From NCBI GenBank assembly GCA_964573625.1, contig CAZNJU010000001.1, positions 673,510-737,509 on the forward strand: DNA of 64,000 nucleotides, given 5' to 3'. The stretch comes from Candidatus Woesearchaeota archaeon. Lineage in GTDB: Archaea > Nanobdellota > Nanobdellia > Pacearchaeales > GW2011-AR1. Within the stretch, counting starts at the first letter, position 1, and every line of letters begins with the position of its first letter. Position numbers and translations under genes: made by a program. Shown here in pieces: positions 4,996 to 25,708 of the stretch. The notes under the pieces were generated by a model that made no database searches, was not told the origin of the DNA, and saw only the letters and a program-made list of their open reading frames with translations.

Positions 4996-5257
4996 CAAAC
5001 CGCTCTCAAGTCGGTATGCAAAAGTTAGCACGATGCATTTTAGTTCTTTTTGAAACTTCTGTAGCAGTAGATTCTTTATTTTTCAAGAGATCTAAATAAA
5101 CAAGGGTCTGCATCTTGGGAATGCCTACTGCCTCAAAAGTTTTGACTATCGATTCATCTATCATAGATTGACAGGGTAATCAACTATATAGTGTTATGGG
5201 TCTACGACGTTAAAATTAAATCAAAAGTAATATAAAGAAGCATTCCGGATTATTTCC

Positions 5258-5863
5258 ATGGTCAAATCCACTTCAAAGATAACGCCCAAATATTGGTTTT
5301 ACATTGGTCTCGTTGTTTTTCTTCTCAGCAGTCTTGGAAGTGGCATAGGGACGTTCGATACAAAATATATTGGAGACAGCATGTACGGTATTGTGGATTG
5401 GCTCGCTGCATGTATCCCCTATTTCTTTTACGGAGCGCTTGCAGGATTACTTATTGATGCATACCTCTCAAAGAAACGCAAGATTATGTTCAATGTACCT
5501 CTCTGGGCGTATTACACGATTGCATTTATCATAATAAGTATAGGAGCGCTTGCAATACATCTTTCAAGCCTTGCATGGAGAGATATTATCTTGTACTTCT
5601 ACTTTCCATTCCATTATGCAATATTCTTCCCCGGGTACGCATATATGGCTTTGCCTGCCAACCCACTATCAGCAACAATCACGCTAAAGCTCACGTTAGA
5701 TATCCTTATGCTAGCCATCTTCTCAAAATGGATCTATCTTAGATTTCAAGCGATAAAGGGAAACGCATCGCGAAGACAGCAGATAATAGAAAAATATGCT
5801 CTAGGAATAATCTTTTTCGTTCTTACTGTGGGAATGTTTCTCTGTGCTAATAATCTGAACTAG
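5258..5863 (+). CDS. hypothetical polytopic membrane protein
   Basis: 201 aa, multiple TM helices. Confidence 0.4.
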   Translation: MVKSTSKITPKYWFYIGLVVFLLSSLGSGIGTFDTKYIGDSMYGIVDWLAACIPYFFYGALAGLLIDAYLSKKRKIMFNVPLWAYYTIAFIIISIGALAIHLSSLAWRDIILYFYFPFHYAIFFPGYAYMALPANPLSATITLKLTLDILMLAIFSKWIYLRFQAIKGNASRRQQIIEKYALGIIFFVLTVGMFLCANNLN

Positions 5864-6266
5864 CGGCTCGTTTCATAAAGAAATTAGAAATACTCCAAAG
5901 TCCCGGTCCTGTCAAAGAAAGAGCTAACGTAGCAATAGTCAATCCAAAGTCACGCACTCCAATCTCCGTAAACCCTATTGAGAACGTTATTCCAGCAAGA
6001 TGCATTCCCAATAGAAACGCAGCGACGCGTGAAAAAACACCGAGTGAAAGGAGCAAGGCGCAAAATAGTTCAAATGCTCCGTTAAGAAGAACAAATTTTA
6101 CCGGCTCAATAGGCACGACTGAAATAAACTGAGGAAGCCAGCCTACAAACGTCTCAGGATGGCTAAGTTGACTTATTCCAAAATAAAAAAATACAAAGGC
6201 AATCCCAAACCGAAGAATAGCTACACCTGCTTGAAAACGAGGATCTAGTTTTGTTTCTAAGGCCAT
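5847..6266 (-). CDS. DoxX-family 4-TM membrane protein
   Basis: 139 aa, 4 TM; paralogous to 24686..25081 (shared IS.SLGF..V.VRDFGL..ATLAL.L.GP..WS motif block); 10-nt overlap with upstream cyt-b5 gene. Confidence 0.55.
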   Translation of the reverse strand: MALETKLDPRFQAGVAILRFGIAFVFFYFGISQLSHPETFVGWLPQFISVVPIEPVKFVLLNGAFELFCALLLSLGVFSRVAAFLLGMHLAGITFSIGFTEIGVRDFGLTIATLALSLTGPGLWSISNFFMKRAASSDY

Positions 6267-8350
6267 GTTATTGTCGCTCCAAAGTCTCCAATATAATAGT
6301 TTCCAATCAAGTTTCGCGCAGTGCCGCTATGTGAGTGTCCACCAGCATTGCCTACAAAATAATTGGTCGACTCATTACCGCATCTGAAAAGAATAGCATT
6401 TCTACCGCCTGGATGACTATTTGTTATATATGTGCCAGGTATAGCATAGAACTTGCCAACGTTAGTAGTTAGATTAATCATAAGCCAGCAATCGTTAAGT
6501 GTGTGATGTTGTCTCAAAGTGCTTATGTTAAGAGTCACAAGGTTAGAGGATTGCACACTAAAGCTCACCGATTGACTGGAGGTCATAACATTATTAGATG
6601 AATTCTGACATCTGACATATGCAGTCATGCTAGCTCCATTAGTCAATCCTGTAATGGTGCCGCCGTGAGTCGATCCAGAAGCAGTAACCATGGTATTGCC
6701 CATAGTAGCATATGTCTGATCAGTGTTACTCCATCTGCATGTGCCCACGATGTTAGTCGTTACATTCAGAGCGGTGCTCGTTGTGCCAGAAGGGAAGGAA
6801 GCCCCATTGCCCGGATTAATAATCGTGGCAGAGATGTTTACTTGTGGTTGGTTTCCGCCCGTATTCACGACGCCAATCTTTACTGTTGAACTGGAAGTCA
6901 TAACATTATTAGATGAATTCTGACATCTGACAAACACGGTAACATTGTTTCCGTTAGTCAATCCCGTGATTGATCCACTATGAGTTGTCCCTGTAATAGT
7001 GCTTAACGTTGCACCCATACTTGAATACGTCTGATCAGTGTTACTCCATTTACACGTACATCCCAGATTTGTCGATACACTAAGAGGCACGCTGGTTGTT
7101 CCGGCAGGGAACATCGTGTCGTTAGCAGGGCTTGTGATTGTGGCGCTGATAGAAGTCATTTGTTGTACGCTAAATCTCACTGATTGACTGGAAGTCATAA
7201 CATTATTAGATGAATTCTGACATCTGACATATGCAGTCATGCTAGATCCATCAGTTAATCCACTAATCGTTCCCACATGCGAAAGCCCGTCAGAGGTAGT
7301 CAGTGAATTGCTCATAGAATCATACGTCTGATCAGTGTTACTCCATTTACACGTACCAATAATGTTCGTTCCCACGTTCAAAGAAACACTTGTAGTACCC
7401 GAGTTGAATGCCTGATTAGAGCTAGGTGAAGTAATAGTTGCGGAAATATTCGCACCGGGAGTCGTCGGAGCAGTCTCATTAGAGCAGTACGTACCAACTT
7501 TATAGGTAGCAAGCAGTGAACGGGCGGTTGATGAGTGCGTTCCTCCGGTTCCACCCTTCGTATTAAACGCGTTAGTAGCTTCAGTGCCACAATTATCTAC
7601 AATAGCTTGAATTCCTCCCGGATGGATAGAAATGTAACTTGATACATCATAGACATTCGAATCAATGAGAAGCCAGCAATTGCTCTGACTGTTATGGCTA
7701 ACAAGTGCAGATCGAGATATACAACTCGAACCACTACTCGAACTTGATTGATTACCAAAGAAAGAGTAAACTCCTTCTACAATACGAACTACACCGTTAG
7801 AATAATAGACTGTGTATGTTCTTCCATTAGATCTTACAATAAACGTATAGCTCGTGACCTCATTATTTGGCAAAGATTCCAAAGCCTGTCGCAAACTATC
7901 AGGAATATCATAGTTGTTTGCAGAATTCAACGAGAGATTTCCAAGATTAACAAGTGTCGTACCAAAGTTACCTATAAAGAAACTGTTAAGGAGGGTATGT
8001 GCATACGCGCTATGCGATCCGCGTCCACCTTTCGTGTTAAAAAGTTGGGTTGCATCGATGCCGCAAGCCTCACGTATCGTTTGCTCCCCTCCCGGGTGTA
8101 GCCGGATGTAAGAAGTGATATCATAGACTTTATTATCAATGATTGTCCAGCAGTCATTTTGACTATTATGTCTTGCTACGGTTGTAGAATCAAGGGACTG
8201 TCCGGTTGTAGTGTTAAGCAAGGTTACATTCTGACTTACAGTTGCAGAAGAATCCCAAGAATAGTAGGTAACGCTCACTACTACTAAAGCAAGAATGAAT
8301 ACTATCGTGAGCTGTTCAAGCCACCCCTCAGTCAGTTTCCGTATGTCCAT
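6257..8350 (-). CDS. membrane-anchored extracellular protein with three cytochrome-b5-like heme-binding domains and three tandem Ig-like repeats
   Basis: N-terminal signal anchor; three copies of the ...CW.IID.KVYDITSY...HPGG..I...CG.DAT..F....GG..HS.A.....IG pattern (cyt b5 family HPGG motif); three about 100-aa repeats ending in YVRCQNSSNNVMTSS. Confidence 0.7.
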   Translation of the reverse strand: MDIRKLTEGWLEQLTIVFILALVVVSVTYYSWDSSATVSQNVTLLNTTTGQSLDSTTVARHNSQNDCWTIIDNKVYDITSYIRLHPGGEQTIREACGIDATQLFNTKGGRGSHSAYAHTLLNSFFIGNFGTTLVNLGNLSLNSANNYDIPDSLRQALESLPNNEVTSYTFIVRSNGRTYTVYYSNGVVRIVEGVYSFFGNQSSSSSGSSCISRSALVSHNSQSNCWLLIDSNVYDVSSYISIHPGGIQAIVDNCGTEATNAFNTKGGTGGTHSSTARSLLATYKVGTYCSNETAPTTPGANISATITSPSSNQAFNSGTTSVSLNVGTNIIGTCKWSNTDQTYDSMSNSLTTSDGLSHVGTISGLTDGSSMTAYVRCQNSSNNVMTSSQSVRFSVQQMTSISATITSPANDTMFPAGTTSVPLSVSTNLGCTCKWSNTDQTYSSMGATLSTITGTTHSGSITGLTNGNNVTVFVRCQNSSNNVMTSSSTVKIGVVNTGGNQPQVNISATIINPGNGASFPSGTTSTALNVTTNIVGTCRWSNTDQTYATMGNTMVTASGSTHGGTITGLTNGASMTAYVRCQNSSNNVMTSSQSVSFSVQSSNLVTLNISTLRQHHTLNDCWLMINLTTNVGKFYAIPGTYITNSHPGGRNAILFRCGNESTNYFVGNAGGHSHSGTARNLIGNYYIGDFGATITWP
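6520..7450 (-). repeat. three tandem about 300-nt intragenic repeats (Ig-like domain repeats)
   Basis: near-identical DNA cores gtcataacattattagatgaattctgacatctgaca at 6582, 6896 and 7194. Confidence 0.8.
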
Positions 8351-8429: not shown

Positions 8430-9029
8430 ATGGAGCTCATGATATTTATTTACACATTTATAGCAATTTTCGCTCTTAATTTGATACCTATTTTTGGCCC
8501 TCCTACATGGATGGTTCTTTCGTTTATTACACTCACATACGCAATTCCTTCACTCCCTCTGTTCGTAATCGTTGCGCTATGTGCTTCAGCATTAGGAAGG
8601 TCTACCCTTACCTATTTTTCAGAAAGAATTTTAAGAAATCGTTTTTTAGGTCGAAAATATCGGGAGAATGTAACTCACCTGAAAAAGCATCTTGAAAAAA
8701 AGCCCTTGACAACATCGACCATTTTCCTCTTGGAAGCATTTACACCCTTGCCTTCAGATCAACTTTTTGTAGCCTACGGTCTTACCGGACTCAAGCTCAG
8801 ATATGCTATAATTCCGTTCATCATTGGAAGAGCATTCACCTATAGTTTTTGGGTTTTTCTTGCCACAGAGACTGCAAAGCAATTAGGAGCTAGCTCGATA
8901 AGCAATTTATCCTTTCTTAGTGGACCGTTTATAGCTGCAGAGTTAGTAATTCTCTTCATAGTCTATTTATTTGTAAGAATTGACTGGGAACAGTTCATTC
9001 TACATCATACCATACGCTTTATTCACTAG
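8430..9029 (+). CDS. DedA/VTT (SNARE-associated)-like membrane protein
   Basis: 199 aa polytopic membrane protein whose proline-containing re-entrant segments resemble the DedA family; weak. Confidence 0.4.
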   Translation: MELMIFIYTFIAIFALNLIPIFGPPTWMVLSFITLTYAIPSLPLFVIVALCASALGRSTLTYFSERILRNRFLGRKYRENVTHLKKHLEKKPLTTSTIFLLEAFTPLPSDQLFVAYGLTGLKLRYAIIPFIIGRAFTYSFWVFLATETAKQLGASSISNLSFLSGPFIAAELVILFIVYLFVRIDWEQFILHHTIRFIH

Positions 9030-10275
9030 CATTCCCTAATACAAGAATTAAATCCCCTATATTCGTTCCCGTTTTACCTGTTACAATTGTCCCATTGACT
9101 TTTTTGAGGAAATTGTATGAATCGTTATTCTTCAAAAAACTGCTCACCTGTAATTTATGTTGCGCAGCTTTAAGTTTAGTTGTTTCATCGACAATTCCTC
9201 CAGCTGCATCAGTTATGAAATCGACTCCATCAGTTGAGCAGCTGACTATCGTTCCTTTTTTCAAGTATTCTGTTGCCCCCAGTACTGTCTCTTGGTTTCG
9301 CCCACCCTTTCCAGTACCCCTAACGTGAACAGTCGTCTCACCTGCGAAAATAAGTGCCTTCCCAGGTTTAACAAGTGATGCTAATCTTTTCCCAACATCA
9401 CGAGCTTCCCCTTTAAGTTGAGTAGTCACAATTCGCGTATTATATCCTAACACCTGCGCTTTTTCTTGCATAGCTTGAGAAGCTGACAAGTTAGTAGCGA
9501 GCAGCAAATTAGTTACATGTGTCAGTCGCGTTTTAGGGGTCTCAGCGAAATTCAATGCTGGTAGAGAATACTTCTTCCGTATTCTTTCGGCATCTTTGAC
9601 AGTAGTTGAATCCCGTACGGTAGGTCCTGAAGCAATGACTTCCAGGTCGTTTGTCATCACATCGCTAATGATGAGCGTTATCATCGTTGCCGGAGCGGCC
9701 AGTGCACCGAGTTGCCCCCCTTTAACATACGAAATATGTTTTCTCACTGTGTTAATTTCCTGAATAGTCGCACCTTTTTTCAACAACAGCTTGTTAACCT
9801 GCTTCTGTTTCTCTAAAGATATTCGTGGAGCATCCATCAGTGCAGATCCTCCTCCACTAATGAGGCAAATCACGAGATCATCTCTATTACACTCTTTTAA
9901 CAAATTAATTATGTTATGCGTTGCTCTAATATTAACTGTTGAAGAAATAGGATGTGTTCCCTTCACAACAGTTATTCGTGAAAGTGATTTATTTCTTGTG
10001 TCTATAACAATTCCACGTGTAATACGTTTCCCCAATATTTTTTCAAGAGTTTCAGCCATGTCTGCAGCCGCCTTTCCAGCACCCACAACATACACATTCC
10101 GATAAGATGCGAGATTCCACGATTTATTTTGAATATTGAGTCGGTTCTTTACAATAGTCACATTTTTACGCATAACATTTTTAACGAGTGCAGATTCAAG
10201 ACCGGCATTAATTATTTCAAGAGCATCTTTTCGAGTTCGCGTGGTAGCCAATGAGCGAAAGTTTTTGATAATCAT
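9019..10275 (-). CDS. glycerate 2-kinase (MOFRL family)
   Basis: VVGAGKAAADMA near the N-term; C-terminal ETTVHVRGTGKGGRNQE...STDGVDFITDAAGG...NDSYNFL...GKTGTNIGDL is diagnostic of the MOFRL family. Confidence 0.85.
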   Translation of the reverse strand: MIIKNFRSLATTRTRKDALEIINAGLESALVKNVMRKNVTIVKNRLNIQNKSWNLASYRNVYVVGAGKAAADMAETLEKILGKRITRGIVIDTRNKSLSRITVVKGTHPISSTVNIRATHNIINLLKECNRDDLVICLISGGGSALMDAPRISLEKQKQVNKLLLKKGATIQEINTVRKHISYVKGGQLGALAAPATMITLIISDVMTNDLEVIASGPTVRDSTTVKDAERIRKKYSLPALNFAETPKTRLTHVTNLLLATNLSASQAMQEKAQVLGYNTRIVTTQLKGEARDVGKRLASLVKPGKALIFAGETTVHVRGTGKGGRNQETVLGATEYLKKGTIVSCSTDGVDFITDAAGGIVDETTKLKAAQHKLQVSSFLKNNDSYNFLKKVNGTIVTGKTGTNIGDLILVLGNASE

Positions 10276-11897
10276 TTTGACTTTATATGCGAAAGAGCGA
10301 AAGCAAGGTCGCCGCGAACCTTTTTTCCAGGATTAAATACTCCTTTCTCATCAAAGATATCTTTCACTTTTTCAAAAATACGTACCATTTCAGGCCCAAA
10401 CTGTTTCTCTAAATAAGGAGTTCTGATAAGTCCATCATTATGCTCTGCAGTTATTGTTCCTTCATACTTCTTAACGAGTGTGGTAAATGCCTGAAGTACT
10501 AAGGGTATTTTATCACGTTGAGTTTGCTCTTTAAGGTCCATTAAGGGGATAATATGGAAATTGCCATCTCCAACATGTCCTGCAAGAGTTGGCTCTATTC
10601 CGTTCTCCTCCAATAAAGTGTACAATTTAGGGAGAAATTCAGAAAGAAATTCAGGTTTCACACTAAAGTCATCAACAAAGGGTGTTGCCATCTTATTTTT
10701 TACCTTTTGCCTTAGAAGATTGAACGATTCTCGACGCATAATCCAGTATTTTTCTCCTTCTTCCTCACTTCTCATCACAATGTTACTTATTTTGGCTTGA
10801 GCAAGTTCTTTACCTAAAAGATTCGCCTGTGTCTGTATTTCTTGCTCAACATCTCCTGTTAGTTCAACAAGTACAATAAAAAACGGAAGACCATGTAACA
10901 ATGATTTGAAAGCCTCTCTTCTGAATCCCCACATGAATGAAAATAAGTTCTTGTTGACTTTCCTCGCTATTTCAGGCATGAACTTTATCCCAAGTTTAAG
11001 CGTGTGCTTATCAAAGCTTTCGAGAGACTCAGGATGATATTTCTTAGCAATATCAATAAGGGGATTGATTTGTGCAAGATTCTTGAGAGATACCGCTACA
11101 AGTCTTGAATGTTTGTTCTTCTTCACTAAATCAACGTCTGCCTCAGTCCATAGACCTAACGTGCCTTGAGAACCAACAAATATTTTTGAAAGGTCAAATG
11201 TATTCCTATCCCATACTTTCCAAAGCAAATAACCTGAAGAATTTTTAGAAACCGCTGGTTGAGCGGCCTTGATTAAATCATAGTTTTTCTCACATAACGT
11301 ATACATTTCACGGTAAATCTTACCCTCGAATGTTTTCTTTCGCATTTTAGCCTTGAGCTCAGACTTGTTCAATTTCTTGAATTCGTACGTGTTACCATCA
11401 GCAAGCACAACTTTTAATTTTCTTACATGATCAACTGTCTGCCCATATACCAGTGACTTCTCTCCTCCGGAGTTATTTGCGATAATCCCGCCCATAGCAC
11501 AGAGAGATTTGCTTGCAGGATAACTTGGGTACATGACTCCTTTTTCGTTCATGACTTTTTCAAGGTCGCGATAATAAACTCCTGGTTCAACAACTGCATG
11601 GTCTGAATCAATAGCATTGATATGATTAATGTATTTCGTAAATGAAACAACAACAGACGTTGTCAGTGGTCCTCCAGTCATATCCGTTCCGGCAGCCCTT
11701 CCAGTAAGTGAAAGACCAGGATTATTTTTAACGAATCTTACAAGGTGCTCAATGTCTTCTGTATCTTTAGGGAACACAACCACGCTAGGCTTCACTTCAA
11801 ATATTGAAGCGTCCCTGCTATACTCTCTCAACGTATCTTCATCCGCTAAAACGTCTCCTTTGAATCCTATCTTAAGTGCATCAATTGGATTTTCCAT
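10272..11897 (-). CDS. FAD-linked oxidase (GlcD / D-lactate dehydrogenase family)
   Basis: FAD_binding_4 motifs (GRAAGTDMTGGPL, CAMGGIIANNSGGEKSLVYG); C-terminal FAD-oxidase_C-like region. Confidence 0.75.
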   Translation of the reverse strand: MENPIDALKIGFKGDVLADEDTLREYSRDASIFEVKPSVVVFPKDTEDIEHLVRFVKNNPGLSLTGRAAGTDMTGGPLTTSVVVSFTKYINHINAIDSDHAVVEPGVYYRDLEKVMNEKGVMYPSYPASKSLCAMGGIIANNSGGEKSLVYGQTVDHVRKLKVVLADGNTYEFKKLNKSELKAKMRKKTFEGKIYREMYTLCEKNYDLIKAAQPAVSKNSSGYLLWKVWDRNTFDLSKIFVGSQGTLGLWTEADVDLVKKNKHSRLVAVSLKNLAQINPLIDIAKKYHPESLESFDKHTLKLGIKFMPEIARKVNKNLFSFMWGFRREAFKSLLHGLPFFIVLVELTGDVEQEIQTQANLLGKELAQAKISNIVMRSEEEGEKYWIMRRESFNLLRQKVKNKMATPFVDDFSVKPEFLSEFLPKLYTLLEENGIEPTLAGHVGDGNFHIIPLMDLKEQTQRDKIPLVLQAFTTLVKKYEGTITAEHNDGLIRTPYLEKQFGPEMVRIFEKVKDIFDEKGVFNPGKKVRGDLAFALSHIKSK

Positions 11898-12850
11898 TAT
11901 CTTTTCCTCCGTATCGCGTTTTTGGCAGCAATAACAATTTCCTTACTAGTACACAAATACTTTTCAAGCAATTTCCCGGGATCACCAGATTCTCCAAATG
12001 TATCACGTATTCCCACAATTTCGAGAGGCACGGGATGTTTCTTTCCCAATAGTTCAGCAACAGCTCCTCCAAGACCTCCATGAATTTGGTGCTCTTCAGC
12101 AGTTACTACTGCCCCTGTTTTTGCAGCAGCCGCAATTAGTGTTTTTTCATCAAGCGGCTTGATAGTGTGACAGTCAATAACCATCGCGTTAATCCCTTCC
12201 TTTGAAAGCTGTTCAGCAGCAACAAGCGACTCATATACCATCGTTCCACATGCGACAAGGCAAACATCTGATCCCTTCCTATAGATGTTAGCTTTGCCAA
12301 TCTGAAAGTCTGTATTGACATCCGTTATTACGGGAACTGCGTTCCTTCCAAATCGAAGATAGACAGGTCCTTTGACTGAGGCTGAAGCAATAGTCGCTTT
12401 CTCAGCCTGAAGAGCATCAGCAGGAACAATTACTTTCATATTTGGAAGTACACGCATAATAGCAATATCCTCTAGCGCTTGATGCGTTGCTCCATCAGGA
12501 CCTACACTAATTCCAGCATGAGCTCCCTGTATCTTCACATTAAGATTGTTATAGCATACGCTCACACGTAGCTGATCCCAATTTCTCCCGGGGCTAAAAA
12601 CAGCATACGAACTAATAAAAGGTATTTTTCCCGTCAAAGCCAATCCTGCTGCAAGTCCTGCCATGTTCTGTTCAGCAACGCCTACTTCAATAAATCGTTC
12701 AGGATACACTTTTTTGAAAAGTTCAACACGCGTTGAATCAGTCAAATCACAACACAATGCGACAACATTTTTGTTCTTCTTGCCCAGTGTTACAAGACCT
12801 TTTCCATATCCTTCTCTTGTAGCTATTTTCTTTACGTCAGAGAGATTCAT
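11897..12850 (-). CDS. transketolase, C-terminal (pyrimidine-binding) subunit
   Basis: archaeal split-tkt arrangement; EGYGKGL...GVAEQNM..AAGLA...P...S.AVF motifs; 4-nt overlap with the N-terminal subunit gene. Confidence 0.85.
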   Translation of the reverse strand: MNLSDVKKIATREGYGKGLVTLGKKNKNVVALCCDLTDSTRVELFKKVYPERFIEVGVAEQNMAGLAAGLALTGKIPFISSYAVFSPGRNWDQLRVSVCYNNLNVKIQGAHAGISVGPDGATHQALEDIAIMRVLPNMKVIVPADALQAEKATIASASVKGPVYLRFGRNAVPVITDVNTDFQIGKANIYRKGSDVCLVACGTMVYESLVAAEQLSKEGINAMVIDCHTIKPLDEKTLIAAAAKTGAVVTAEEHQIHGGLGGAVAELLGKKHPVPLEIVGIRDTFGESGDPGKLLEKYLCTSKEIVIAAKNAIRRKR

Positions 12851-13743
12851 TCAAGCCTCCCGCATCTATCTATAAGTTCCTTACATTTTCCAGCGTCCAG
12901 TCCACGAAGCTTGCATTCATCAGCACATATCTCATTGAGCGCGATAACCGCTTCTTCTTTTACAGGTGGTTTGCCATGCCATTCAAAACGCCTCTCCATA
13001 AAGCTAACACCTTTTCCAGGAATAGTCTCACAAATAATCACTGTCGGCTTTCCACGATATTCTTTTGCCTGTTTAAACGCCGCAAGTATCTCTTTCATAT
13101 TATTTCCATTAATAGTGATAACATTCCAGTTAAACGCTCTAAATTTACCTGCAACTGGTTCGAGAGGCATAATATCCTCAGTCGTTCCATCTATCTGAAT
13201 ATGATTTCTGTCAACAAAACCGATCAAGTTATCTAATTTGTACTTAGCCGCAAACATGAAGGATTCCCAGCATTGTCCTTCGTCAAGCTCTCCATCTCCC
13301 ATTGAGAGAAAGACGTGATAATCTTCCTTATCCATCTTAGCACCGTAGGCTATTCCAGCAGCGACTGATGTTCCCTGTCCCAACGGCCCCGTACTCGTTT
13401 CTATACCTGGCAACGAACCCCTATGAGGATGTCCTTGCAATCGCGAGTCTAATTTGCGCAACGTTTTAAGTTCACTTTGTGGAAAATACCCTGCCTTTGC
13501 AAGACTCACGTATAGAATAGGGCAGATATGTCCGTTAGAAAGCACTAGTCTATCTCTCTTCTTCCATGAAGCATCTCGAGGATTATGATTCATAACGTTA
13601 AAGTAAAGTGCTGTAAACACGTCTGCCATTCCAAGAGGGCCTGCAGAATGCCCTGACCCTGCAGTAGTCAGCATGCGTATTACATCTTCCCGTAGAGTAT
13701 CTGCAAGAATCTCAAGCTCACGTATACTAGAAATCTTTTTCAT
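12847..13743 (-). CDS. transketolase, N-terminal (TPP-binding) subunit
   Basis: SGHSAGPLGMADV...GDGELDEGQ..E TPP-binding motifs. Confidence 0.85.
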   Translation of the reverse strand: MKKISSIRELEILADTLREDVIRMLTTAGSGHSAGPLGMADVFTALYFNVMNHNPRDASWKKRDRLVLSNGHICPILYVSLAKAGYFPQSELKTLRKLDSRLQGHPHRGSLPGIETSTGPLGQGTSVAAGIAYGAKMDKEDYHVFLSMGDGELDEGQCWESFMFAAKYKLDNLIGFVDRNHIQIDGTTEDIMPLEPVAGKFRAFNWNVITINGNNMKEILAAFKQAKEYRGKPTVIICETIPGKGVSFMERRFEWHGKPPVKEEAVIALNEICADECKLRGLDAGKCKELIDRCGRLE

Positions 13744-15223: not shown

Positions 15224-18200
15224 ATGAAAAGAGGGACAACAATAGGCATTATCTTACTGGCCTTTGTTTTTTGTACTCTGGCACCAAGCCCTACTGAGGC
15301 GCGTTCTCAATTACCTCTAATGAAAACAAATAGTATTAGTTTTTCAGATCAATTGAACTTTGGTCAACTACCTCCGTTATCATCTATCTACACGCCTAAT
15401 ATCACTGAACCACATGGTGATCAATATAATATTACATTTACTGCTCCCTCTCCTCGATTTTTAACACGTATTCCAGAACCTCCAACAGGCGAATATACTC
15501 TCTTAGATGATGCTTGTAGCACTTCAGATATCGCCAATTATACGCCTACTCAAATTGTTGATTATGTTACGACTCATTCGATGGACTGTCTTTATTTTTT
15601 CTGGACATATGACGCAAACACGCTGAGTGTTTTCACCGATGCGCATATTCAAGCAGCCCTTAATGCCACTGAAGATCGTGTCGCCACCTATGACGGAACA
15701 AACAATCAAAGTATACAGCAGCTCATATTTTACATACGAACGGCGTATTATCACGGATCATATCATTCAAGCCCGAATTTTACTAATGCTACGCTTCTTC
15801 GTACTATCGACGTGTATAGAGAGTTTGCAAACACCACGTATTTTAACAACGCAAGCAGCGATGCAGAGTTAACGCTCTATCATTGGATAAACGGTGCTGA
15901 CGCTGCAGGCGTTTCGTACGCACTTGTGCCGCAACTTAACACAATCATGCGAACGTTCATGAATGAGACTAATCGATGGTCTCGGCTGACGCAGTTGTTC
16001 AATATCTATTCAATAGAAGGGTATTCTATTCCGCGAGGACTCTATATTGGACACCCTAATCGAACACAAATGATAAGTTCAATGCAACAACAGAATGTAA
16101 GTGGAATACTCGAAGATATTGCGTTAAACGATACCATGATTCCAACCGCAGGTACCTCTCTGATAAACAATGCAATCGGCAGTTTAGGATATATGATTAC
16201 CGTTTCAGAATTCAATGCGAGTTCAGTAAATACGTTAACAAAAGTGATTAATCATTACGAGCCACTAACTCTGCCATATCTTTGGGCAGTATACATGCTT
16301 GATTATTATAATAACTGCCATACTGCAAACGAGAATGTAAGTATCTGTCTTTCAAATCTAACCGCTCCTATTTTTAGCGTCGCCTTACCAAATAACTACT
16401 CGTTTGATAACGGAACAAGAGTATTCATAACAGCTCTTAATTATTCTGACGTTCAATCGCTCTACCATGCGATTAAGCAAGTTGAATGGGAATTTGGAAG
16501 AGTCGCAGGAACCGTACCGGTAGTTGGAGATAATAATAGTGTTCTCACTATGTACATTTACGGTTCTCCAACTGACTACGCGCTATACCAGCCCTTTCTA
16601 TTTGGTCTAGGAACGAACAATGGAGGAATTTACATAGAACAATGGGGCTCTTTTTTCAGTTATCAAAGAACAACAAGTGAAAGTTTCTATACCTTAGAAG
16701 AATTATTGCGTCATGAATACACGCATTACCTCGTTGGAAGATATATTGTTCAAGGAAACTGGGGAGAAGTCCCCATATATGATAATCAACGCATGACTTG
16801 GTTTGATGAGGGGATGGCTGAATTCTTTACGGGGAGTACTCAGAGAGACAGTGTTAAAACGCGAAAGACGCTCGTTCAATTAATCGCGAGTGATGGTACT
16901 AGATTAACGGTAAGCGATGTATTCAATAGTTCAAGTTATAACAGTTTTACATTTTACCGTTACGCAGCCTTATTTTTCAACCACCTCTATACCAACGATC
17001 TGCAACAGATGTTCGATTTTATTGACACTGTAAAGGCGGCAAATACAACAAGATTTGACGCATATGTTCTATCGTTAAGAACAAACGCAACGTATGAATC
17101 AAACTATCAATTATTTATTAACAACACAGTAGGAAATGTTTCTTCACTGCTTAATCCCTCTACCGATTTCCCAAGATACCTAAATACTACTTCCATTTCC
17201 GCAATACAGGCAGCGTTTAGACAGACTACTTTAGGATCAGGGGCTAATTGTTCAGCCCTCTATAGTAGTTCTGCAAACGCACGTTTCAATTGTACAGGCC
17301 AACTTACAGACTCAGTCACAAACGCGTCTAACAGAGTAGCTGCATGGCGAATTTTTGATGCAGCTCTTAACAAGATAATTAATGAAACATTAAACAGTAC
17401 GATTAATGTAACATATACTAATTTTAGAGCTATGAACTGTAAGATGGACAACATTACATTCGTCACAGTCAGTAGTTCAGTCTACCCTAAAACAAATTAC
17501 TCTTGTGAAGGCCCTCTGGCGTTTAACACAGAACTTGCACAATGCTTCGACGAAATAGACAATGACGGTGACGGGTTTATTGATTACGGAAATGATACAG
17601 ACTGTTCAAGCAATTATGATACTAATGAAAGCCACTCTCCTCCAGATTTCCCAAGTGTAACGATTGTATATCCTACAAGCAATATATATGTTTCAGTAAT
17701 AAGCGCGCTTAATTATACAGTAGAAGACAATAGTATACAATCATGTTGGTATTCTACTGATCAAGGCGTAACAAACACGACAATAACTTGTGGTACAAAT
17801 GTAACAGGCCTCACATCATCTGCAGGGACAAATACTTGGCAAGTGTATGCCAATGATAGTGATGGTAACACAAACTCTAGCACAGTCTCATTCACGTATA
17901 TCCCTAACGCGCTCACCGTCGGAACATGTACTTCTCTTAACCAGACAAATAAAACCTACGTGCTTAATGCGAGTATTAATCCGACCGAGGATAGTCCATG
18001 CATAAACATCACTGCCCAAAACATAACATTTACCTGTGGAAGATACACTATCTATAATGTAACCCATGCTAACACGATTATTTATTCAAATCAGTTCAAC
18101 ACAACTATTATTAATTGTAAAAATCTAACCGGAGGATCGGGACTTGCAAGCACCGGAATTAAATTAGTTTCAGCAAATTACTCTTCCATAATTAACGTAT

Positions 18201-19900
18201 CCATATTATATGCTCGATTTGGGTTTAACGTTGGCACGACAGACGTTGTTTCAATAATCAATAGTAGCGCCTCAGCAGGAGTCGACAGTGGTGTTAGCGG
18301 AACTCCGTCAAACTCAACATTTAGAGGCAATACGTTGAGCTATTATTCCAGAGGATACTCAATTACCGGAACGAACAATACATACGTAAATAACACAGTT
18401 TACGGAAATACACAAGGTTTCGAATCAGGAGGTACAGCAAGTCGTTATTATAATAATACGCTACTCTCTAACACAAACGGATTTAGAATAACCGTAGGAG
18501 ATATTATTGTAGAAGATAGCTATTTCTATAATAATACTTATGGTTTTCTTCTCACTACTGATTTAGATGTAAATATCTCAAGGACGATTATAAACTCCTC
18601 AAGATCAGACGGGATTGCAGCCCAATCATCAGCAACGACTGCTCGAATAAACTTAGTGAATGTATCCTTCATCAATACAACAGGCTATGATCTTAATATA
18701 TCTGGAACATACAATAATTCACGATTCAATGATACATCAATAAATAGATACATCTTCTCTTCTTCTGGAGGAATATATTCATTTAGTAAATCAGGAGCAG
18801 GTAATATCAAATTCCTTCAGAGCATCAATGGATCAGGAAGCAATCTGAGCTCAAACTTAAATATCTCTTTCAATCTCATCAACATCAATGTTACAAGCAA
18901 CCCTGGATTGAACAGGAGTGCAAACATCACGTTTTACAACATGCCTGGGACATTTGTCAATCCTCGAATATTCAAGGACGGTTCTAATTGTACTTCTTGC
19001 TACAATTTTACTTCCTTAAATGCTGCCACTGTAACGTTTAACGTAAGCAATTTTGGAAATAATTTCACCATTCGTGGAGACAACATAGGTCCAATCGTCA
19101 ATATCACGTATCCTGCAAACACATCATATTCTTCAGGACCCACGGAACTCAATTATACGTTAAATGATACTGACATCCAATCATGTTGGTACACATTAGA
19201 TAGTGGAGTCACAAATATAAGTCTAACTTGTGGTACAAATGTAACGGGCCTCACATCATCTACAGGGACAAATACTTGGCAAGTGTATGCCAATGATAGT
19301 CTAGGCAATACTAACTCAAGCAACGTAACGTTCTTTGTAACTACTTCTGGAGCGAGTGGAAGCAGTGGTGGCGGTGGCAGTAGTTCAAGTAGTGGCGCAG
19401 GCGAAGCGTCTGCGTATGAAATCCCTGATAGCGTTCTTACCGAAGGATATGCTGCGTATGTCTCAGTTGGAAGCATTCTTAAATTCACATTAAGAAATGA
19501 TAATCATAGCATCCGAGTAATTTCATTCACTGAGAAGAATGCAACAATTCTCATTCAATCTGATCCAATTACGGTAATTATTAACCGCGGAGAATCAAAA
19601 CAAGTAGACATTGATAAAGATGGAAAAGAAGATATTATGTTAAAATACGAGTCGGTAAGCAATGGTAAGTTATTTTTATCAGTTCAGAAAGTCCAAGCGG
19701 CAATCGAAAAAGTTGTTGATCGCGCATCGCCCCCGATAGATATCGCTACAAAAGGTTGTATAGAACCATCATGCCCTTCTTCTGCCAAAGGTTTACTTAT
19801 TGTAGTATTGATAGCATGTCTGACAGGAATAAGTTTCTTTATTGCCTGGTACAGTCGATTTAGATCAAAGAGAAGAGTTCTCATGGGATTTGAAAAATAA
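15224..19900 (+). CDS. giant (1558 aa) cell-surface glycoprotein with collagenase-type (M9-like) zinc metallopeptidase domain, Ig-like repeats, parallel beta-helix repeats and C-terminal TM anchor
   Basis: signal peptide; [11 protein letters not shown]...[21 protein letters not shown] (HEXXH plus downstream Glu, closely resembling the clostridial collagenase catalytic motif); very many NxS/T sequons; duplicated about 50-aa module; PbH1-like N.T..N repeats; G/S linker then TM plus RSKRR tail. Confidence 0.7.
   Translation: [1558 protein letters not shown]
17785..17860 (+). repeat. 76-nt core, copy 1, duplicated 1440 nt downstream with 2 mismatches (intragenic)
   Basis: aacttgtggtacaaatgtaac(a/g)ggcctcacatcatct(g/a)cagggacaaatacttggcaagtgtatgccaatgatagt; flanks are much more diverged. 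Confidence 0.85.
19225..19300 (+). repeat. 76-nt core, copy 2
   Basis: see copy 1; same reading frame. Confidence 0.85.
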
Positions 19901-20791: not shown

Positions 20792-21328
20792 TTACTCAAG
20801 CCACGGATGAGCTTTTACAAAAGAGTGATGTCTCCACCAGGTGCCAAGTCCAATACGACGACCTGCGTGCACTAAAATAAACGAAACCATCAGAACAAGA
20901 TAAATAAGATGGTCATCAAGAAGAGGATTATTTTCTGGAGGAAATACCGCAGCCCACATCAAAAAGAGCATAACTGCTCCGGAAACGCTCGCGATATCAA
21001 CAAGTACTCCTAAGATGAGAGCAAGACCGATTCCTAGAAGTCCAAGCATAAATATCCAATCAACAAAAGCGTATCCTGCAAGTGATTTGAAAAATGGTGC
21101 AAGAGGACCACTTGTTGCAAACGTGAGAAATCCAGTCGTAGGACTTCCTCCTTGCAACCAGGCATTCTTACAAAGGAGTTGAATTCCTGCATCGGTATGA
21201 CATGTAGCATATCCTAACCCAATAAGTTTGTCAAAAAAAGCCCAAAGAAAAATAAGTCCCAGACAGATACGAAGCACAGCCCAAACATACGCTGTTGGTC
21301 GCGAAATAAAACGTCTCTCTTTAACCAC
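20792..21328 (-). CDS. DoxX-family membrane protein
   Basis: 178 aa, 4 TM, RI.LG..FLW.. N-terminal pattern. Confidence 0.55.
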   Translation of the reverse strand: MVKERRFISRPTAYVWAVLRICLGLIFLWAFFDKLIGLGYATCHTDAGIQLLCKNAWLQGGSPTTGFLTFATSGPLAPFFKSLAGYAFVDWIFMLGLLGIGLALILGVLVDIASVSGAVMLFLMWAAVFPPENNPLLDDHLIYLVLMVSFILVHAGRRIGLGTWWRHHSFVKAHPWLE

Positions 21329-21366: not shown

Positions 21367-21759
21367 TCAGGCTTCTGTCTTTCGTGCAAACAATGGCTTG
21401 TAATGACTCCACGTATGAACGATTACATACACTTGCAAAACAATTAAGATAGCCATCATCACAAAACTCATAAGACTAGGCGCAAGTATGATATTGAACA
21501 ACAACACGTTTACCATAATCGGCGTAAGAAGAGCCATGGAGAACGGAACCCACTGATTGAAGACAAGCATAAGCCCGATAAGCGTCTCGCAAATCCCTAC
21601 AAAAGGTATCATATATCCTGTAGCTCCAAGAGCGAGGAGAAAAGCCATTCCAGCACTAGGCAAGGTAGGTGAAGGTAACGGTAAGAACTTAGTCACTCCA
21701 AAGAAAATAAATGAAAGTCCCAGTAAAATGCGTACAATTGTGTATAATGTCTTCCCCAT
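21367..21759 (-). CDS. DoxX-like small membrane protein
   Basis: 130 aa, 4 TM, in tandem with 20792..21328. Confidence 0.45.
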   Translation of the reverse strand: MGKTLYTIVRILLGLSFIFFGVTKFLPLPSPTLPSAGMAFLLALGATGYMIPFVGICETLIGLMLVFNQWVPFSMALLTPIMVNVLLFNIILAPSLMSFVMMAILIVLQVYVIVHTWSHYKPLFARKTEA

Positions 21760-21798: not shown

Positions 21799-22671
21799 TT
21801 ATGCGATTACACATGATAAAATCGCTGATTTACAGGCGCTAGAACAGCACGAATGCATTTCAACATCGCATTCAGGACAAATACATGTCCATTTATTACA
21901 AGTAGGATTTGGACAGTCACCACATAAGTCACACGGTTTATTGCAATGCATACAAGAGGTTATCGGCTTCGCATTCTGATCGATTCGTGAAGTCATTCGC
22001 TTATCAAAGACGAAGCAACTTCCTTCCCACACAGTATTAGGAAATTCCTGACAGAATGTAATGATCCCTCCATGAAGCTGACTCACATCTTTAAAACCTT
22101 GTTCAATCATGTATGCCGAAGCTTTCTCACACCGTATTCCTCCAGTACAATACATGACGATTTTCTTGTCTTTCTTGTCTTCCAGTTTTTTCACAAAATC
22201 AGGGAATTCTCTGAAGTTAGTAGTATCTGCGGTAACTGCTCCCTTGAACTTACCAACACGAGACTCATATACGTTCCTTGTGTCGAGAATAATCGTGTCC
22301 TTATCATCATAAACCTCGAGAAATTCCTTAGGCGTTAGGTATTTGCCTGTTTTGCTCATATCAAGTTGCTTGTCCATTCTGATAATCTCATTTTTTACCT
22401 TCACAATCATCCTATTGAACGGATGATGCGTCCCACGTTCTTCTTTAAACTGTATATCTGAGAAAAGGGCATCTTTGCGTAATTCTTCCTTATATTGTTC
22501 AATTTGTTCTTTAGTACCTGAAACTGATCCATTGAGACCCTCTGTAGCAACGAGTATGCGTCCCTTAATTCCAAGTTTTTTGCAAAAATCAAGATGGTTC
22601 GCACTCCAAGACTCAGGATTTTCTACCTGGGCAAACTTGTAAAATAAAAGTATGTGTACATCGCGTTCCAT
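21799..22671 (-). CDS. trhO: tRNA uridine(34) hydroxylase TrhO (UPF0176 rhodanese-domain protein) with Cys-rich C-terminal extension
   Basis: ILLFYKF...GIKGRILVATEGLNGSVSG N-domain; rhodanese Cys loop YCTGGIRCE; C-term CMHCNKPCDLCGDCPNPTCNKWTCICPEC. Confidence 0.8.
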   Translation of the reverse strand: MERDVHILLFYKFAQVENPESWSANHLDFCKKLGIKGRILVATEGLNGSVSGTKEQIEQYKEELRKDALFSDIQFKEERGTHHPFNRMIVKVKNEIIRMDKQLDMSKTGKYLTPKEFLEVYDDKDTIILDTRNVYESRVGKFKGAVTADTTNFREFPDFVKKLEDKKDKKIVMYCTGGIRCEKASAYMIEQGFKDVSQLHGGIITFCQEFPNTVWEGSCFVFDKRMTSRIDQNAKPITSCMHCNKPCDLCGDCPNPTCNKWTCICPECDVEMHSCCSSACKSAILSCVIA

Positions 22672-23412: not shown

Positions 23413-24000
23413 ATGGACTTTGAAAAAATAGTTATGTCGCGTCATGCGGCAAGAAAATTCGATGGTAAAAAGATAGATGAAGCTAAAGTTGAGAAACTTC
23501 TAGAGTTAATACGATATGCTCCTTCATCATATAACATTCAGCCATGGGCTATTAAAATAATTTCAGATCAGACTATCAAAGATAAATTAGCTCCTGCTGC
23601 ATGGAATCAGCCTCAAATCACTACCTGCTCACATCTTCTCGTCTTCTGTGCCAATACGGACATTGTGTCACATATTGACATGCTTGAGAATCAACTAAAG
23701 CAAGCAAATCTGCCTACGGAAGTAGTCGGAATGATGCGTAACTTCGAAAAAGGAATGAATCCTGACCAAAAGAGGAGCTGGGCTCAACGTCAAGTATATT
23801 TAGCGTTGGGAAACGCGCTTAATGGTGCTAAAGAACTAGGTTTTGACTCATGTCCTATGGAAGGATTTGATCCGAAAGCATTCGCAGAAATCCTCAATCT
23901 GCCCCAAAATATCATCCCTACCGCTCTCTGCACAATAGGATATACCTCAGATACTGTGCGTGCAAAGATGCGCCTGGATAAGAAAGATATACTTATTTAA
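23413..24000 (+). CDS. NAD(P)H nitroreductase family protein
   Basis: MSRHAARKFDGKKIDEAKVEKLLELIRYAPSSYNIQPW typical nitroreductase N-terminus. Confidence 0.8.
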   Translation: MDFEKIVMSRHAARKFDGKKIDEAKVEKLLELIRYAPSSYNIQPWAIKIISDQTIKDKLAPAAWNQPQITTCSHLLVFCANTDIVSHIDMLENQLKQANLPTEVVGMMRNFEKGMNPDQKRSWAQRQVYLALGNALNGAKELGFDSCPMEGFDPKAFAEILNLPQNIIPTALCTIGYTSDTVRAKMRLDKKDILI

Positions 24001-24241: not shown

Positions 24242-24281
24242 GTTTCATAGAGTTTAAATAACCTAAAAAAATAAGAGTATC

Positions 24282-24689
24282 ATGAATAAATTTGGAGCAC
24301 TGATTATTGTTGTTATCGCTGCATTTGCACTTATTGGAGTTGCCAGATATACAGGTTATGCTGTTGCACCTATTACCGATCAACCTTCACCTTCGGTAAA
24401 TTCAAGCGGAGGCAATACACCTGCAAGCGTCCCTACAACACAACCGTCCTCTTCAATAACTTTAGCTGAATTAGCAAAACATAATTCAATGAACAGTTGC
24501 TGGGTCTCATACCAAGGGAATGTGTATGACATAACCTCATTCTTACCAGTACATCCGGGATCGCCCCAAGCTATTCTTCCATATTGCGGAACTGCCACGG
24601 AGTTTACTCAGGCATTCACTCAACAGCACGGAACTTCTCAGGTAAGGAAACTGAACAGTAAAGGAATCTTAATGGGTACTCTCGCATGA
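24282..24689 (+). CDS. membrane-anchored cytochrome-b5-like heme-binding domain protein
   Basis: N-terminal TM; HNSMNSCWVSYQGNVYDITSFLPVHPGSPQAILPYCGTATEFTQAFTQQHGTS matches the cyt-b5 family pattern; 4-nt overlap with downstream DoxX gene. Confidence 0.65.
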   Translation: MNKFGALIIVVIAAFALIGVARYTGYAVAPITDQPSPSVNSSGGNTPASVPTTQPSSSITLAELAKHNSMNSCWVSYQGNVYDITSFLPVHPGSPQAILPYCGTATEFTQAFTQQHGTSQVRKLNSKGILMGTLA

Positions 24690-25081
24690 AATCTGAAGAA
24701 TACGGCAAAATACTTCTAAGAATTTCATTATCGCTCGTATTTCTTTGGTTTGGATTTAATCAAATTTATGCTCCCGGAGAATGGATAGGATATGTACCCT
24801 CATTCCTTACATCATTTTTCTCAGCAAACACAATAATTTTATCAAATGGTATATTTGAAGTCGTACTAGGGCTTATGCTTCTGACAGGAATGTATGTACG
24901 CTTTTCAGCAGCTCTTCTCGGCCTGCATCTTATAAACATCTCCTTTTCTCTCGGGTTTTCAGCAGTAGCTGTGCGTGATTTCGGTCTTTCACTTGCGACA
25001 ATTGCTCTATTCCTGCAAGGCCCAGACGCCTGGTCTCTTGACGCATATTTTACGAGAAAGAAGAGTCAGCATAATTTATAA
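24686..25081 (+). CDS. DoxX-family 4-TM membrane protein
   Basis: paralog of 5847..6266. Confidence 0.55.
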   Translation: MKSEEYGKILLRISLSLVFLWFGFNQIYAPGEWIGYVPSFLTSFFSANTIILSNGIFEVVLGLMLLTGMYVRFSAALLGLHLINISFSLGFSAVAVRDFGLSLATIALFLQGPDAWSLDAYFTRKKSQHNL

Positions 25082-25102: not shown

Positions 25103-25708
25103 GTGGGTTACGCATTTGTCTATGAAGCATCTAATCATTACAAAATAAAAGTAGCTATAGGTCTTCTTCTTTTTCTTGCGCTCTTCCTCGGAGTAACCAT
25201 CATTGTATATACTGTTGCGACAAGCTACTCGAGTGAGCATTCGTTTCTCACTAGCTTCGTCTTGACTATTCAGAACGAAATTATCAATTTGACTCCTATT
25301 GGGCTATTCTATTCCTCATTTCTCGGAGGAATATTTATTGTGCCCTCAGCAGAAGAAATCGTTTTTTATCTCGCATTACTTAAAGGAAATCCCATAATTC
25401 TTAGCATTGTGCTTGTAAACCTAGGACATTATGCTTCACAAGTAGTCAATTATTTTCTTGGCCTCAAAATAGGGAAGCTCATCGTTCCATTAATTTCAAA
25501 AAGAAAAATATACAAAGCCCGTCGATTTGTAAACAAGTACGGCCAGTACGGCGTCTTTATATTTAACGTTACTCCGTTGCCTGCTCCTCTTCTAACCTTT
25601 GCATTAGGAATAACGCGCTACAACAAATACCGTCTATTCTTATTCACCATTGCCGGAACGATATTAAAATACGCGATTATTGCAGGAGTTTTCGTACTGA
25701 TCCACTAG
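25103..25708 (+). CDS. DedA/VTT-like membrane protein
   Basis: KYGQYGVFIFNVTPLPAPLLTFALGITRY resembles the DedA signature segment. Confidence 0.45.
   Translation: MGYAFVYEASNHYKIKVAIGLLLFLALFLGVTIIVYTVATSYSSEHSFLTSFVLTIQNEIINLTPIGLFYSSFLGGIFIVPSAEEIVFYLALLKGNPIILSIVLVNLGHYASQVVNYFLGLKIGKLIVPLISKRKIYKARRFVNKYGQYGVFIFNVTPLPAPLLTFALGITRYNKYRLFLFTIAGTILKYAIIAGVFVLIH

Follow-up and report, generated by a model that had tools for sequence, protein, structure and literature searches.

A tethered cytochrome b5 co-encoded with a DoxX membrane protein: a putative surface electron-transfer module of DPANN archaea and candidate phyla radiation bacteria

What does a small cytochrome b5-like protein do beside a membrane protein of the DoxX family, and why should one stretch of archaeal DNA hold this pairing twice? 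We addressed these questions for the gene pair at 24282..25081 of a 64,000-nucleotide stretch of contig CAZNJU010000001.1, which is referred to as the window and whose first letter is position 1. The window is archaeal, because it encodes aIF5B, ribosomal protein S6e and aIF2-gamma. The closest relatives of the b5 and DoxX proteins carry the labels Nanoarchaeota, Woesearchaeota or Pacearchaeota, and the organism is a small-genome DPANN archaeon. Scans of the window for tRNAs and Rfam families gave no matches.

The original prediction, made from the sequence, described this pair as a second b5 plus DoxX module carrying a single b5 domain. This was borne out by the open reading frames (ORFs), their Pfam matches and their similarity to the first copy. 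Our analysis indicates that the b5 protein is an outward-facing, tethered, bis-His cytochrome b5 of the prokaryotic b558 type. On balance, we lean towards reading the pair as a two-subunit surface electron-transfer module, in which DoxX would be the membrane coupling subunit, possibly linked to quinone, and b5 the tethered carrier. The features of the pair are as follows.

24253..24260, + strand: TATA-box-like element TTTAAATA, read from the sequence, its center about 25 nt 5' of the b5 start codon
24282..24689, + strand: b5 ORF, 135 aa; Pfam Cyt-b5 (PF00173), E 5.7e-17, 61.9 bits against a cut-off of 23.7
24291..24341, + strand: N-terminal helix, aa 4-20, from hydropathy; helix 5-20 in the AlphaFold2 (AF2) model
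24498..24500 and 24585..24587, + strand: Cys73 and Cys102 pair (CW and CG positions), from the alignment
24552..24554, + strand: putative heme ligand His91 (HPG motif), from the alignment
24627..24629, + strand: putative heme ligand His116, from the alignment
24686..24689, + strand: ATGA, overlap of the b5 stop and the DoxX start, from the ORF map and the sequence
24686..25081, + strand: DoxX ORF, 131 aa; Pfam DoxX (PF07681), E 5.5e-7, 30.6 bits against a cut-off of 23.6

The TTTAAATA element resembles an archaeal TATA box and is a putative promoter. From its distance to the b5 start codon (center about 25 nt upstream), we would expect a leaderless or short-leader transcript.

The b5 protein and its DoxX neighbor

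Behind its N-terminal helix, the b5 protein continues through a Ser/Thr/Pro-rich linker (aa 21-56; AF2 predicts disorder over aa 21-53) into the b5 domain (aa 57-135), which is modeled with a predicted local distance difference test (pLDDT) score of about 95. In Foldseek comparisons, the AF2 model matches the heme-binding b5 structures 3lf5, 4b8n, 1cyo and 1cxy with template modeling scores (TM-scores) of 0.72-0.83 (target-normalized) and root-mean-square deviations of 1.8-2.5 Å. His91 and His116 align with the ligand histidines of 4b8n, 1cxy and flavocytochrome b2, and Cys73 and Cys102 align with both cysteines of Ectothiorhodospira vacuolata cytochrome b558 (1cxy). Across 20 close homologs, His67, Cys73, Trp74, His91, Cys102 and His116 are invariant. 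Both ligand histidines and both cysteines are present in all 38 b5 domains aligned from related loci, whereas bovine b5 lacks the Cys pair. From these alignments, we infer that the domain carries heme and that Cys73 and Cys102 probably form a disulfide.

Many b5 homologs carry a lipobox-like signal (e.g. VAGCT) in place of the plain anchor. These signals, together with the topology of the natural fusions described below, place the b5 domain outside the cytoplasm. The protein resembles E. vacuolata b558 in its b5 fold, in both histidines and in both Cys positions (sequence E 3.3e-11, structural TM-score 0.78), and b558 is reportedly periplasmic and disulfide-bonded. Unlike b558, which is soluble and has no known DoxX partner, the window protein is tethered by a helix and a long linker, and b5 proteins of this kind are co-encoded with DoxX or fused to it.

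For the DoxX protein, an alignment of 71 sequences was used both for the AF2 model and to define conserved columns. The model (pLDDT 95.7) contains four helices, at residues 3-28, 47-67, 71-88 and 93-111, in agreement with hydropathy, and the distribution of positive charges predicts that the N and C termini are both inside. The invariant or near-invariant polar residues among the 71 sequences are Arg12, Gln26, Asn54, Glu58, His81, Arg97 and Asp98. The predicted topology puts all of them except Arg12 in the outer membrane half, and the least variable regions are the outer halves of transmembrane helices 1 and 4. Columns specific to the type of partner lean towards outer loop 3, although the trend is weak and phylogeny confounds it.

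Searches for relatives of known structure returned little for DoxX. Its profile matched no PDB sequence, and the only good Foldseek match was the assembly factor NACHO/TMEM35A (TM-score 0.67, E 0.1), followed by weak matches to the membrane part of the vitamin-K-dependent carboxylase (TM-score about 0.5). The DoxD model (PF04173) scored 19.2 bits against the protein, below its cut-off of 22.7 (E 0.0013).

A conserved pairing with interchangeable partners

We scanned genomes with the DoxX alignment, keeping one genome per species, and obtained 80 loci from DPANN archaea and candidate phyla radiation (CPR) bacteria, the latter including Paceibacteria, Nomurabacteria and Taylorbacteria. A b5 gene stands directly upstream of DoxX on the same strand in 29 of the 80, and no b5 gene occurs elsewhere in these loci (about 8 kb each), a placement far more consistent than chance would give. 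The converse scan, of metagenomes with the b5 alignment, yielded 80 loci, 74 of them with at least 300 nt downstream; in 61 of these 74, DoxX follows directly on the same strand. The divergence of the two proteins is also correlated between pairs (r 0.48, 72 pairs; 0 of 2000 Mantel permutations), which indicates that b5 and DoxX have been inherited as a unit.

The junctions between the two genes are tight. Among 83 distinct b5 to DoxX junctions, 49 overlap, 31 are ATGA, 10 are one-base overlaps and 73 lie within 9 nt. The 4-nt overlap of the window pair, which the original prediction had taken to imply translational coupling, is therefore the commonest junction of the family. This fits the earlier interpretation, and the arrangement suggests that translation of the two genes may be coupled.

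In some relatives, the two proteins have become one. When 1.84 billion representative proteins were searched with a profile, 151 members of the DoxX subfamily were recovered at E <= 1e-30, and the long members include six natural DoxX-b5 fusions, with one, two or five b5 domains each.

P0110: DoxX and one b5
P0106, P0139 and P0162: DoxX and two b5
P0158: a Cys-rich region with a DUF4215 domain, then DoxX, then one b5
P0191: 1615 aa; five b5 alternating with five Big_7 and five fn3

In every fusion, DoxX continues into a short basic segment, then into a fifth hydrophobic helix and, past a linker, into b5, which is just what joining DoxX to an anchored b5 would produce. This order fixes the topology, with the C terminus of DoxX inside and b5 outside. 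P0191 would form a long extracellular multi-heme stalk. As a separate observation, the gene after the P0110 fusion (L169, 2809..3030; L numbers are our handles for loci) encodes a CsoR/RcnR-type metal-sensing repressor. The original prediction had argued from the presence of two copies that the pairing is functional rather than accidental. Two-way synteny in archaea and bacteria, fusions and co-divergence now support this claim, and they do so far more strongly than two copies alone.

We also clustered the genes neighboring the DoxX-subfamily loci, and three types of redox partner recurred on the same strand. One or another of them is present at about two thirds of the loci.

Cytochrome b5: about 30 loci; order b5 then DoxX throughout
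Cupredoxin: 10 loci, all archaeal; CuA-motif forms directly upstream, same strand
Probable flavin mononucleotide (FMN)-binding protein with ApbE: 15 loci, mostly bacterial; order differs between bacteria and archaea

The cupredoxin partners match Pfam Copper-bind and Cupredoxin_1. In five of them, whose genes overlap the DoxX start by 1-14 nt, there is a CuA-type motif, C-x3-C-x3-H-x2-M, and the sites of the remaining ones resemble type-1. The CuA-motif proteins (L016, L021, L024, L052, L068) are small, anchored and from DPANN archaea, and stand outside the context of cytochrome oxidase or N2O reductase.

The third class consists of anchored proteins of about 175 aa that share the invariant motif SG[SG]SLT and match Pfam FMN_bind weakly (E 0.02-0.04), followed by a gene for the flavin transferase ApbE (Pfam E 4.8e-39). 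The bacterial order is FMN-binding, ApbE, DoxX and the archaeal order is DoxX, FMN-binding, ApbE, with gaps of 4-53 nt. In CPR bacteria the SGSSLT protein, about 160-205 aa long and the presumed substrate of ApbE, may represent an undescribed flavinylated domain. The CPR ApbE proteins beside DoxX (L023, L026, L040, L042, L048, L053, L054, L056, L077, L080) show no obvious signal peptide or anchor.

The partner type tracks DoxX clades in a crude neighbor-joining (NJ) tree. The b5, cupredoxin and flavinylated partners have in common that they are anchored extracytoplasmic electron carriers, and the conserved job of the DoxX subfamily would therefore be to serve such carriers. This swap of partners within one subfamily had been missed by the original prediction.

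Other neighbors were seen in single or few loci. At one locus a DsbA-like thioredoxin (Pfam Thioredoxin_4/DSBA) adjoins DoxX, and another holds an 823-aa protein in which, by eye, a CcdA-like membrane domain follows a thioredoxin-like one. In L001, L002, L008, L009 and L067, a DoxX_2 (PF13564) gene comes before b5-DoxX, so that b5 stands between two DoxX-clan proteins; the same DoxX_2 gene is found in L011 with no b5.

The proposed mechanism and its alternatives

In the electron-transfer module that we favor, the b5 protein would be anchored by its one N-terminal helix, and the flexible Ser/Thr/Pro-rich tether would hold a disulfide-stabilized heme domain outside the cell. The anchor helix would pack against the four helices of DoxX, as it does covalently in the fusions, and the overlapping stop and start codons would keep the two subunits in step. 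The polar cluster in the outer half of DoxX, formed by Asn54, Glu58, His81 and Arg97-Asp98, may be the site at which electrons are exchanged between a lipid-soluble carrier, most plausibly quinone/quinol, and the heme. The tethered b5 could then exchange single electrons with an external partner, in either direction.

Published DoxX-family proteins provide precedents. Two of them, DoxD and BtdS, serve as the membrane subunits of thiosulfate:quinone oxidoreductase and hydroxyhydroquinone dehydrogenase, respectively (PMC10084136), and Mycobacterium tuberculosis has a DoxX-SseA-SodA membrane oxidoreductase complex (PMC7662651, PMC7907618). The published cases are all membrane subunits or scaffolds of redox complexes, and the b5 pairing would likewise join a DoxX-family membrane subunit to a redox partner, here an extracytoplasmic one.

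Several observations weigh against the electron-transfer interpretation. DoxX has neither a demonstrated cofactor nor a solved redox-active relative, NACHO/TMEM35A being its only clear structural match, and about a quarter of the DoxX loci have no redox partner nearby. The FMN-binding label of the third partner class is only probable, because the class has no PDB relative and its FMN_bind match is weak; the label draws on that match, on the SGSSLT motif and on the ApbE gene next to it. Among the neighbor clusters of the DoxX loci, none that is conserved beside the pair represents a dehydrogenase or a terminal enzyme. To our knowledge, DPANN and CPR organisms synthesize neither quinone nor heme. 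Published work also describes them as lacking electron-transport chains and oxygen reductases (PMC7507113), so that both heme and quinone would need to be scavenged.

We weighed four other explanations of the pairing. Close relatives share unrelated neighbors, such as a topoisomerase and the VTT gene, and the adjacency of b5 and DoxX might likewise be synteny by descent with no functional link. However, the same order and strand recur in 29 genome and 61 metagenome loci of archaea and bacteria with differing flanks, the six fusions are independent architectures and two separate copies exist in one genome. The fusions and the cross-domain conservation effectively refute this explanation, which we find hardly credible. 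We consider it unlikely, but clearly less far-fetched, that DoxX is a scaffold or assembly factor that carries no electrons and instead inserts, holds or loads with cofactor single-pass extracytoplasmic proteins, the electron donor being elsewhere. Such a role would suit a protein whose only solved structural relative is an assembly factor, which shows no cofactor motif and whose M. tuberculosis counterpart has been described as the scaffold of its complex. The buried, conserved polar cluster (Glu58, His81, Arg97-Asp98) within only 131 aa nevertheless suggests ligand chemistry over simple holding, the enzymes of which DoxD and BtdS form part are quinone-linked, and no alternative donor is conserved nearby. 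The fusions are compatible with both readings.

The remaining two explanations assign the pair a more specific task. As a special case of the electron-transfer module, electrons delivered through b5 could detoxify oxidants or repair oxidized surface components of the envelope. The thiol-recycling complex of M. tuberculosis and a DoxX operon in the H. influenzae RpoE2 regulon are precedents, a third DoxX gene in the window directly follows a rhodanese-domain gene, and a nitroreductase gene recurs near the pair. Yet the genes conserved beside it include no superoxide dismutase, methionine sulfoxide reductase or peroxidase, and proteins in which Ig-like domains separate three to five b5 domains look made for reach rather than for membrane protection, so this specialization seems improbable to us. 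The b5-like domain could also be a heme scavenger (hemophore), with DoxX acting in the heme uptake of a heme-auxotrophic organism; we know of no heme synthesis in DPANN archaea. In Flavobacterium psychrophilum, doxX does lie within the iron-regulated heme-uptake operon hfpR-doxX-hfpY (PMC9331221). A bis-His b5, however, holds heme as a fixed cofactor, the interchangeable cupredoxin partners and flavinylated partners (with their own flavin transferase) are no scavengers, and no transporter is conserved beside the pair. We regard this role as very unlikely.

The electron-transfer module can be set against four known systems. DoxDA of Acidianus ambivalens likewise combines a small membrane subunit of the DoxD/DoxX fold with an adjacent gene for a second subunit in membrane redox chemistry, and it uses quinone (PMC10084136). 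In contrast, the partner here is a heme b5 and not DoxA, no sulfur-oxidation genes are adjacent and the hosts reportedly lack respiratory chains. Pfam scans of the neighbors of both copies found no DoxA. Because the DoxD model is not reached and DoxA is missing, the window pair is not DoxDA. BtdLS of Aromatoleum anaerobium is similar in that BtdS, of the DoxX/D family, is the small membrane subunit of a two-subunit quinone/hydroquinone enzyme. It differs in that its large subunit is a dehydrogenase and not an electron carrier, and it belongs to a proteobacterial catabolic pathway.

The M. tuberculosis DoxX-SseA-SodA complex shares with our model a DoxX protein as the membrane core of a redox complex. 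Its partners, however, are a rhodanese and a superoxide dismutase, its chemistry is that of thiols and thiosulfate, and its genes are not an overlapping pair. No SodA was found among the Pfam-scanned ORFs, which covered both neighborhoods and most larger ORFs of a window that is not fully annotated. Flavin-based extracellular electron transfer and ApbE systems (PMC8238504, PMC11334425) offer a further parallel, an anchored, outward-facing carrier wired by small membrane proteins, and sister DoxX loci carry ApbE and a probable flavinylated protein where b5 stands here. Hidden Markov models (HMMs) built from the sister-locus neighbors found no ApbE or FMN-binding gene in the window, so the window pair is not an ApbE-type flavinylated system. 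Likewise, no Ndh2 or EetA/EetB-like gene appeared in Pfam scans around both copies or in the neighbor clusters, these genes not having been searched by name. The main text of the two papers on flavin-based systems mentions neither DoxX, b5 nor cupredoxin.

Much of microbial diversity belongs to DPANN archaea and CPR bacteria. In CPR genomes, cytochrome b5 has been recorded as an electron carrier with no role assigned (PMC8080830). Our findings add that such b5 proteins face outward, are genetically tied or fused to DoxX and are interchangeable with copper and flavin carriers. Surface electron transfer in these organisms can now be tested on a defined pair of genes, and the poorly understood DoxX family gains a working hypothesis, in which it provides the membrane subunit that couples to extracytoplasmic one-electron carriers. 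Should this be right, it bears on the redox balance of episymbionts and on their interaction with hosts. A literature search found no paper linking DoxX to cytochrome b5, DPANN or CPR; the 2019 work of Burroughs and Aravind on DoxX gene contexts was outside its reach, so an earlier mention is possible.

More speculatively, the b5-, cupredoxin- and flavoprotein-DoxX pairs might together constitute a minimal extracellular electron-transfer device shared by DPANN archaea and CPR bacteria, for use in cells that have no respiratory chain. Host-derived quinones in scavenged membranes would supply or take up electrons, which the tethered carrier would exchange with the host surface or external acceptors. 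We put this forward tentatively, as a conjecture that we consider rather unlikely. If it held, the device would discharge fermentative reducing power or draw electrons from the host, and in some lineages the carrier would be a stalk in which Ig-like domains set apart as many as five b5 domains.

The first copy and the surrounding genes

The first copy of the module lies at 5847..8350 and differs from the second in the size of its b5 protein.

6257..8350, - strand: long b5, 697 aa, anchored; Pfam Cyt-b5 E 2.3e-46, 156.1 bits, 3 stretches
5847..6266, - strand: first-copy DoxX, 139 aa; Pfam DoxX E 7.4e-10, 39.8 bits; its start overlaps the long b5 stop by 10 nt
5258..5863, + strand: multi-helix membrane protein, 201 aa, no Pfam family; convergent on the first-copy DoxX, overlapping its 3' end by 17 nt
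8430..9029, + strand: second VTT/DedA gene, divergent from the long b5 gene

The 697-aa protein contains b5 domains at aa about 50-132, 208-291 and 604-693, with limits drawn from our own HMM, and all three retain the HPG histidine, the second histidine and both cysteines. Long multi-b5 forms also occur in L063 and L055. A segment of about 70 aa (aa about 133-205) separates the first two b5 domains, and three tandem repeats of about 100 aa with two cysteines each lie within aa about 296-600. These repeats, possibly Ig-like, have no significant Pfam match. A PepSY-like identity, considered for this 70-aa insert and for the C-terminal domain of fusions, reached only E 0.012 at best and is not claimed.

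The two copies are clearly related. Their DoxX proteins align with 38% identity over 127 aa (E 1e-32), and the single b5 domain of the second copy matches the three domains of the long protein with E 5e-16 (40% identity), 3e-15 and 2e-6. The paralogy that the original prediction had proposed for the two modules is thus upheld at both genes. In the crude NJ tree, which carries no support values, the first-copy DoxX groups with that of L063, whose partner is a long multi-b5 protein, and the second-copy DoxX groups with the short-b5 loci L006, L007, L022, L058 and L067. The b5 domains differ correspondingly in the context of the second histidine, which is 'QH-G' with a shorter loop in the short forms vs the canonical 'G-S/T-H-S' in the long ones. 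Because the DoxX genes fall in different tree lineages and the b5 domains differ, the copies are not recent duplicates. They are separate module lineages, which arose from an ancient duplication or by separate acquisition.

The convergent 201-aa membrane protein is kept only in the DoxX lineage of the first copy, where it occupies the same convergent site in L063 (4115..4720), L035 (4384..5184) and L070 (4238..4684). We considered whether it is a VTT relative, and it shows no similarity to the VTT protein.

Around the second copy, the following genes are of note.

20792..21328, - strand: fourth DoxX-clan gene, 178 aa; DoxX-like N terminus LRICLGLIFLWAFFDKL, weak subfamily-HMM match (E 5e-4), no Pfam match
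21367..21759, - strand: third DoxX gene, 130 aa; Pfam DoxX E 7e-6; 40 nt downstream of the rhodanese gene
21799..22671: rhodanese/UPF0176 gene, which precedes the third DoxX and not the b5-DoxX pair
23413..24000, + strand: nitroreductase-family flavoenzyme, 280 nt upstream of b5; Pfam Nitroreductase E 9.9e-30
25103..25708, + strand: VTT/DedA-domain membrane protein, GTG start 21 nt past the DoxX stop; Pfam VTT_dom E 1.7e-10

The 64-kb window thus encodes four DoxX-clan genes, and the third, beside its rhodanese gene, recalls the DoxX-rhodanese complex of M. tuberculosis. Homologs of the nitroreductase (about 60% identical) directly follow DoxX in L029 (4401..5021) and directly follow a b5 gene without DoxX in L133 (3247..3831) and L126 (832..1149). 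The enzyme is a candidate cytoplasmic electron donor or simply shared synteny, and we treat it as a weak lead.

The VTT/DedA gene at 25103..25708 is possibly in the same transcript as DoxX, and its membership in the module is doubtful. A VTT homolog lies directly beside DoxX only in L109, and more distantly in five other loci (among them L092, L067, L158 and L112). We considered the VTT/DedA proteins as a paralogous third component of the two copies and rejected this, the two genes not being detectably similar (E 0.055) and the adjacency being limited to few close relatives.

Beyond the first copy, at 9019..13743 (- strand), lies a cluster of a MOFRL/DUF4147 (glycerate-kinase-like) gene, a flavin adenine dinucleotide (FAD)-linked oxidase gene (GlcD/D-lactate-dehydrogenase-like) and a split transketolase. 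FAD-linked lactate and glycolate oxidases are classic donors to cytochromes or quinones. Two large genes encode probable surface proteins, a 1558-aa collagenase (Peptidase_M9; 15224..19900, + strand) and a 2066-aa FG-GAP/PKD/fn3 protein (44571..50771, + strand), for which a role as host-interaction factors of an episymbiont is plausible. Finally, a 52-aa ORF at 5006..5164 (- strand) matches only the N-terminal helix-turn-helix of TrmB regulators and may be a truncated remnant.

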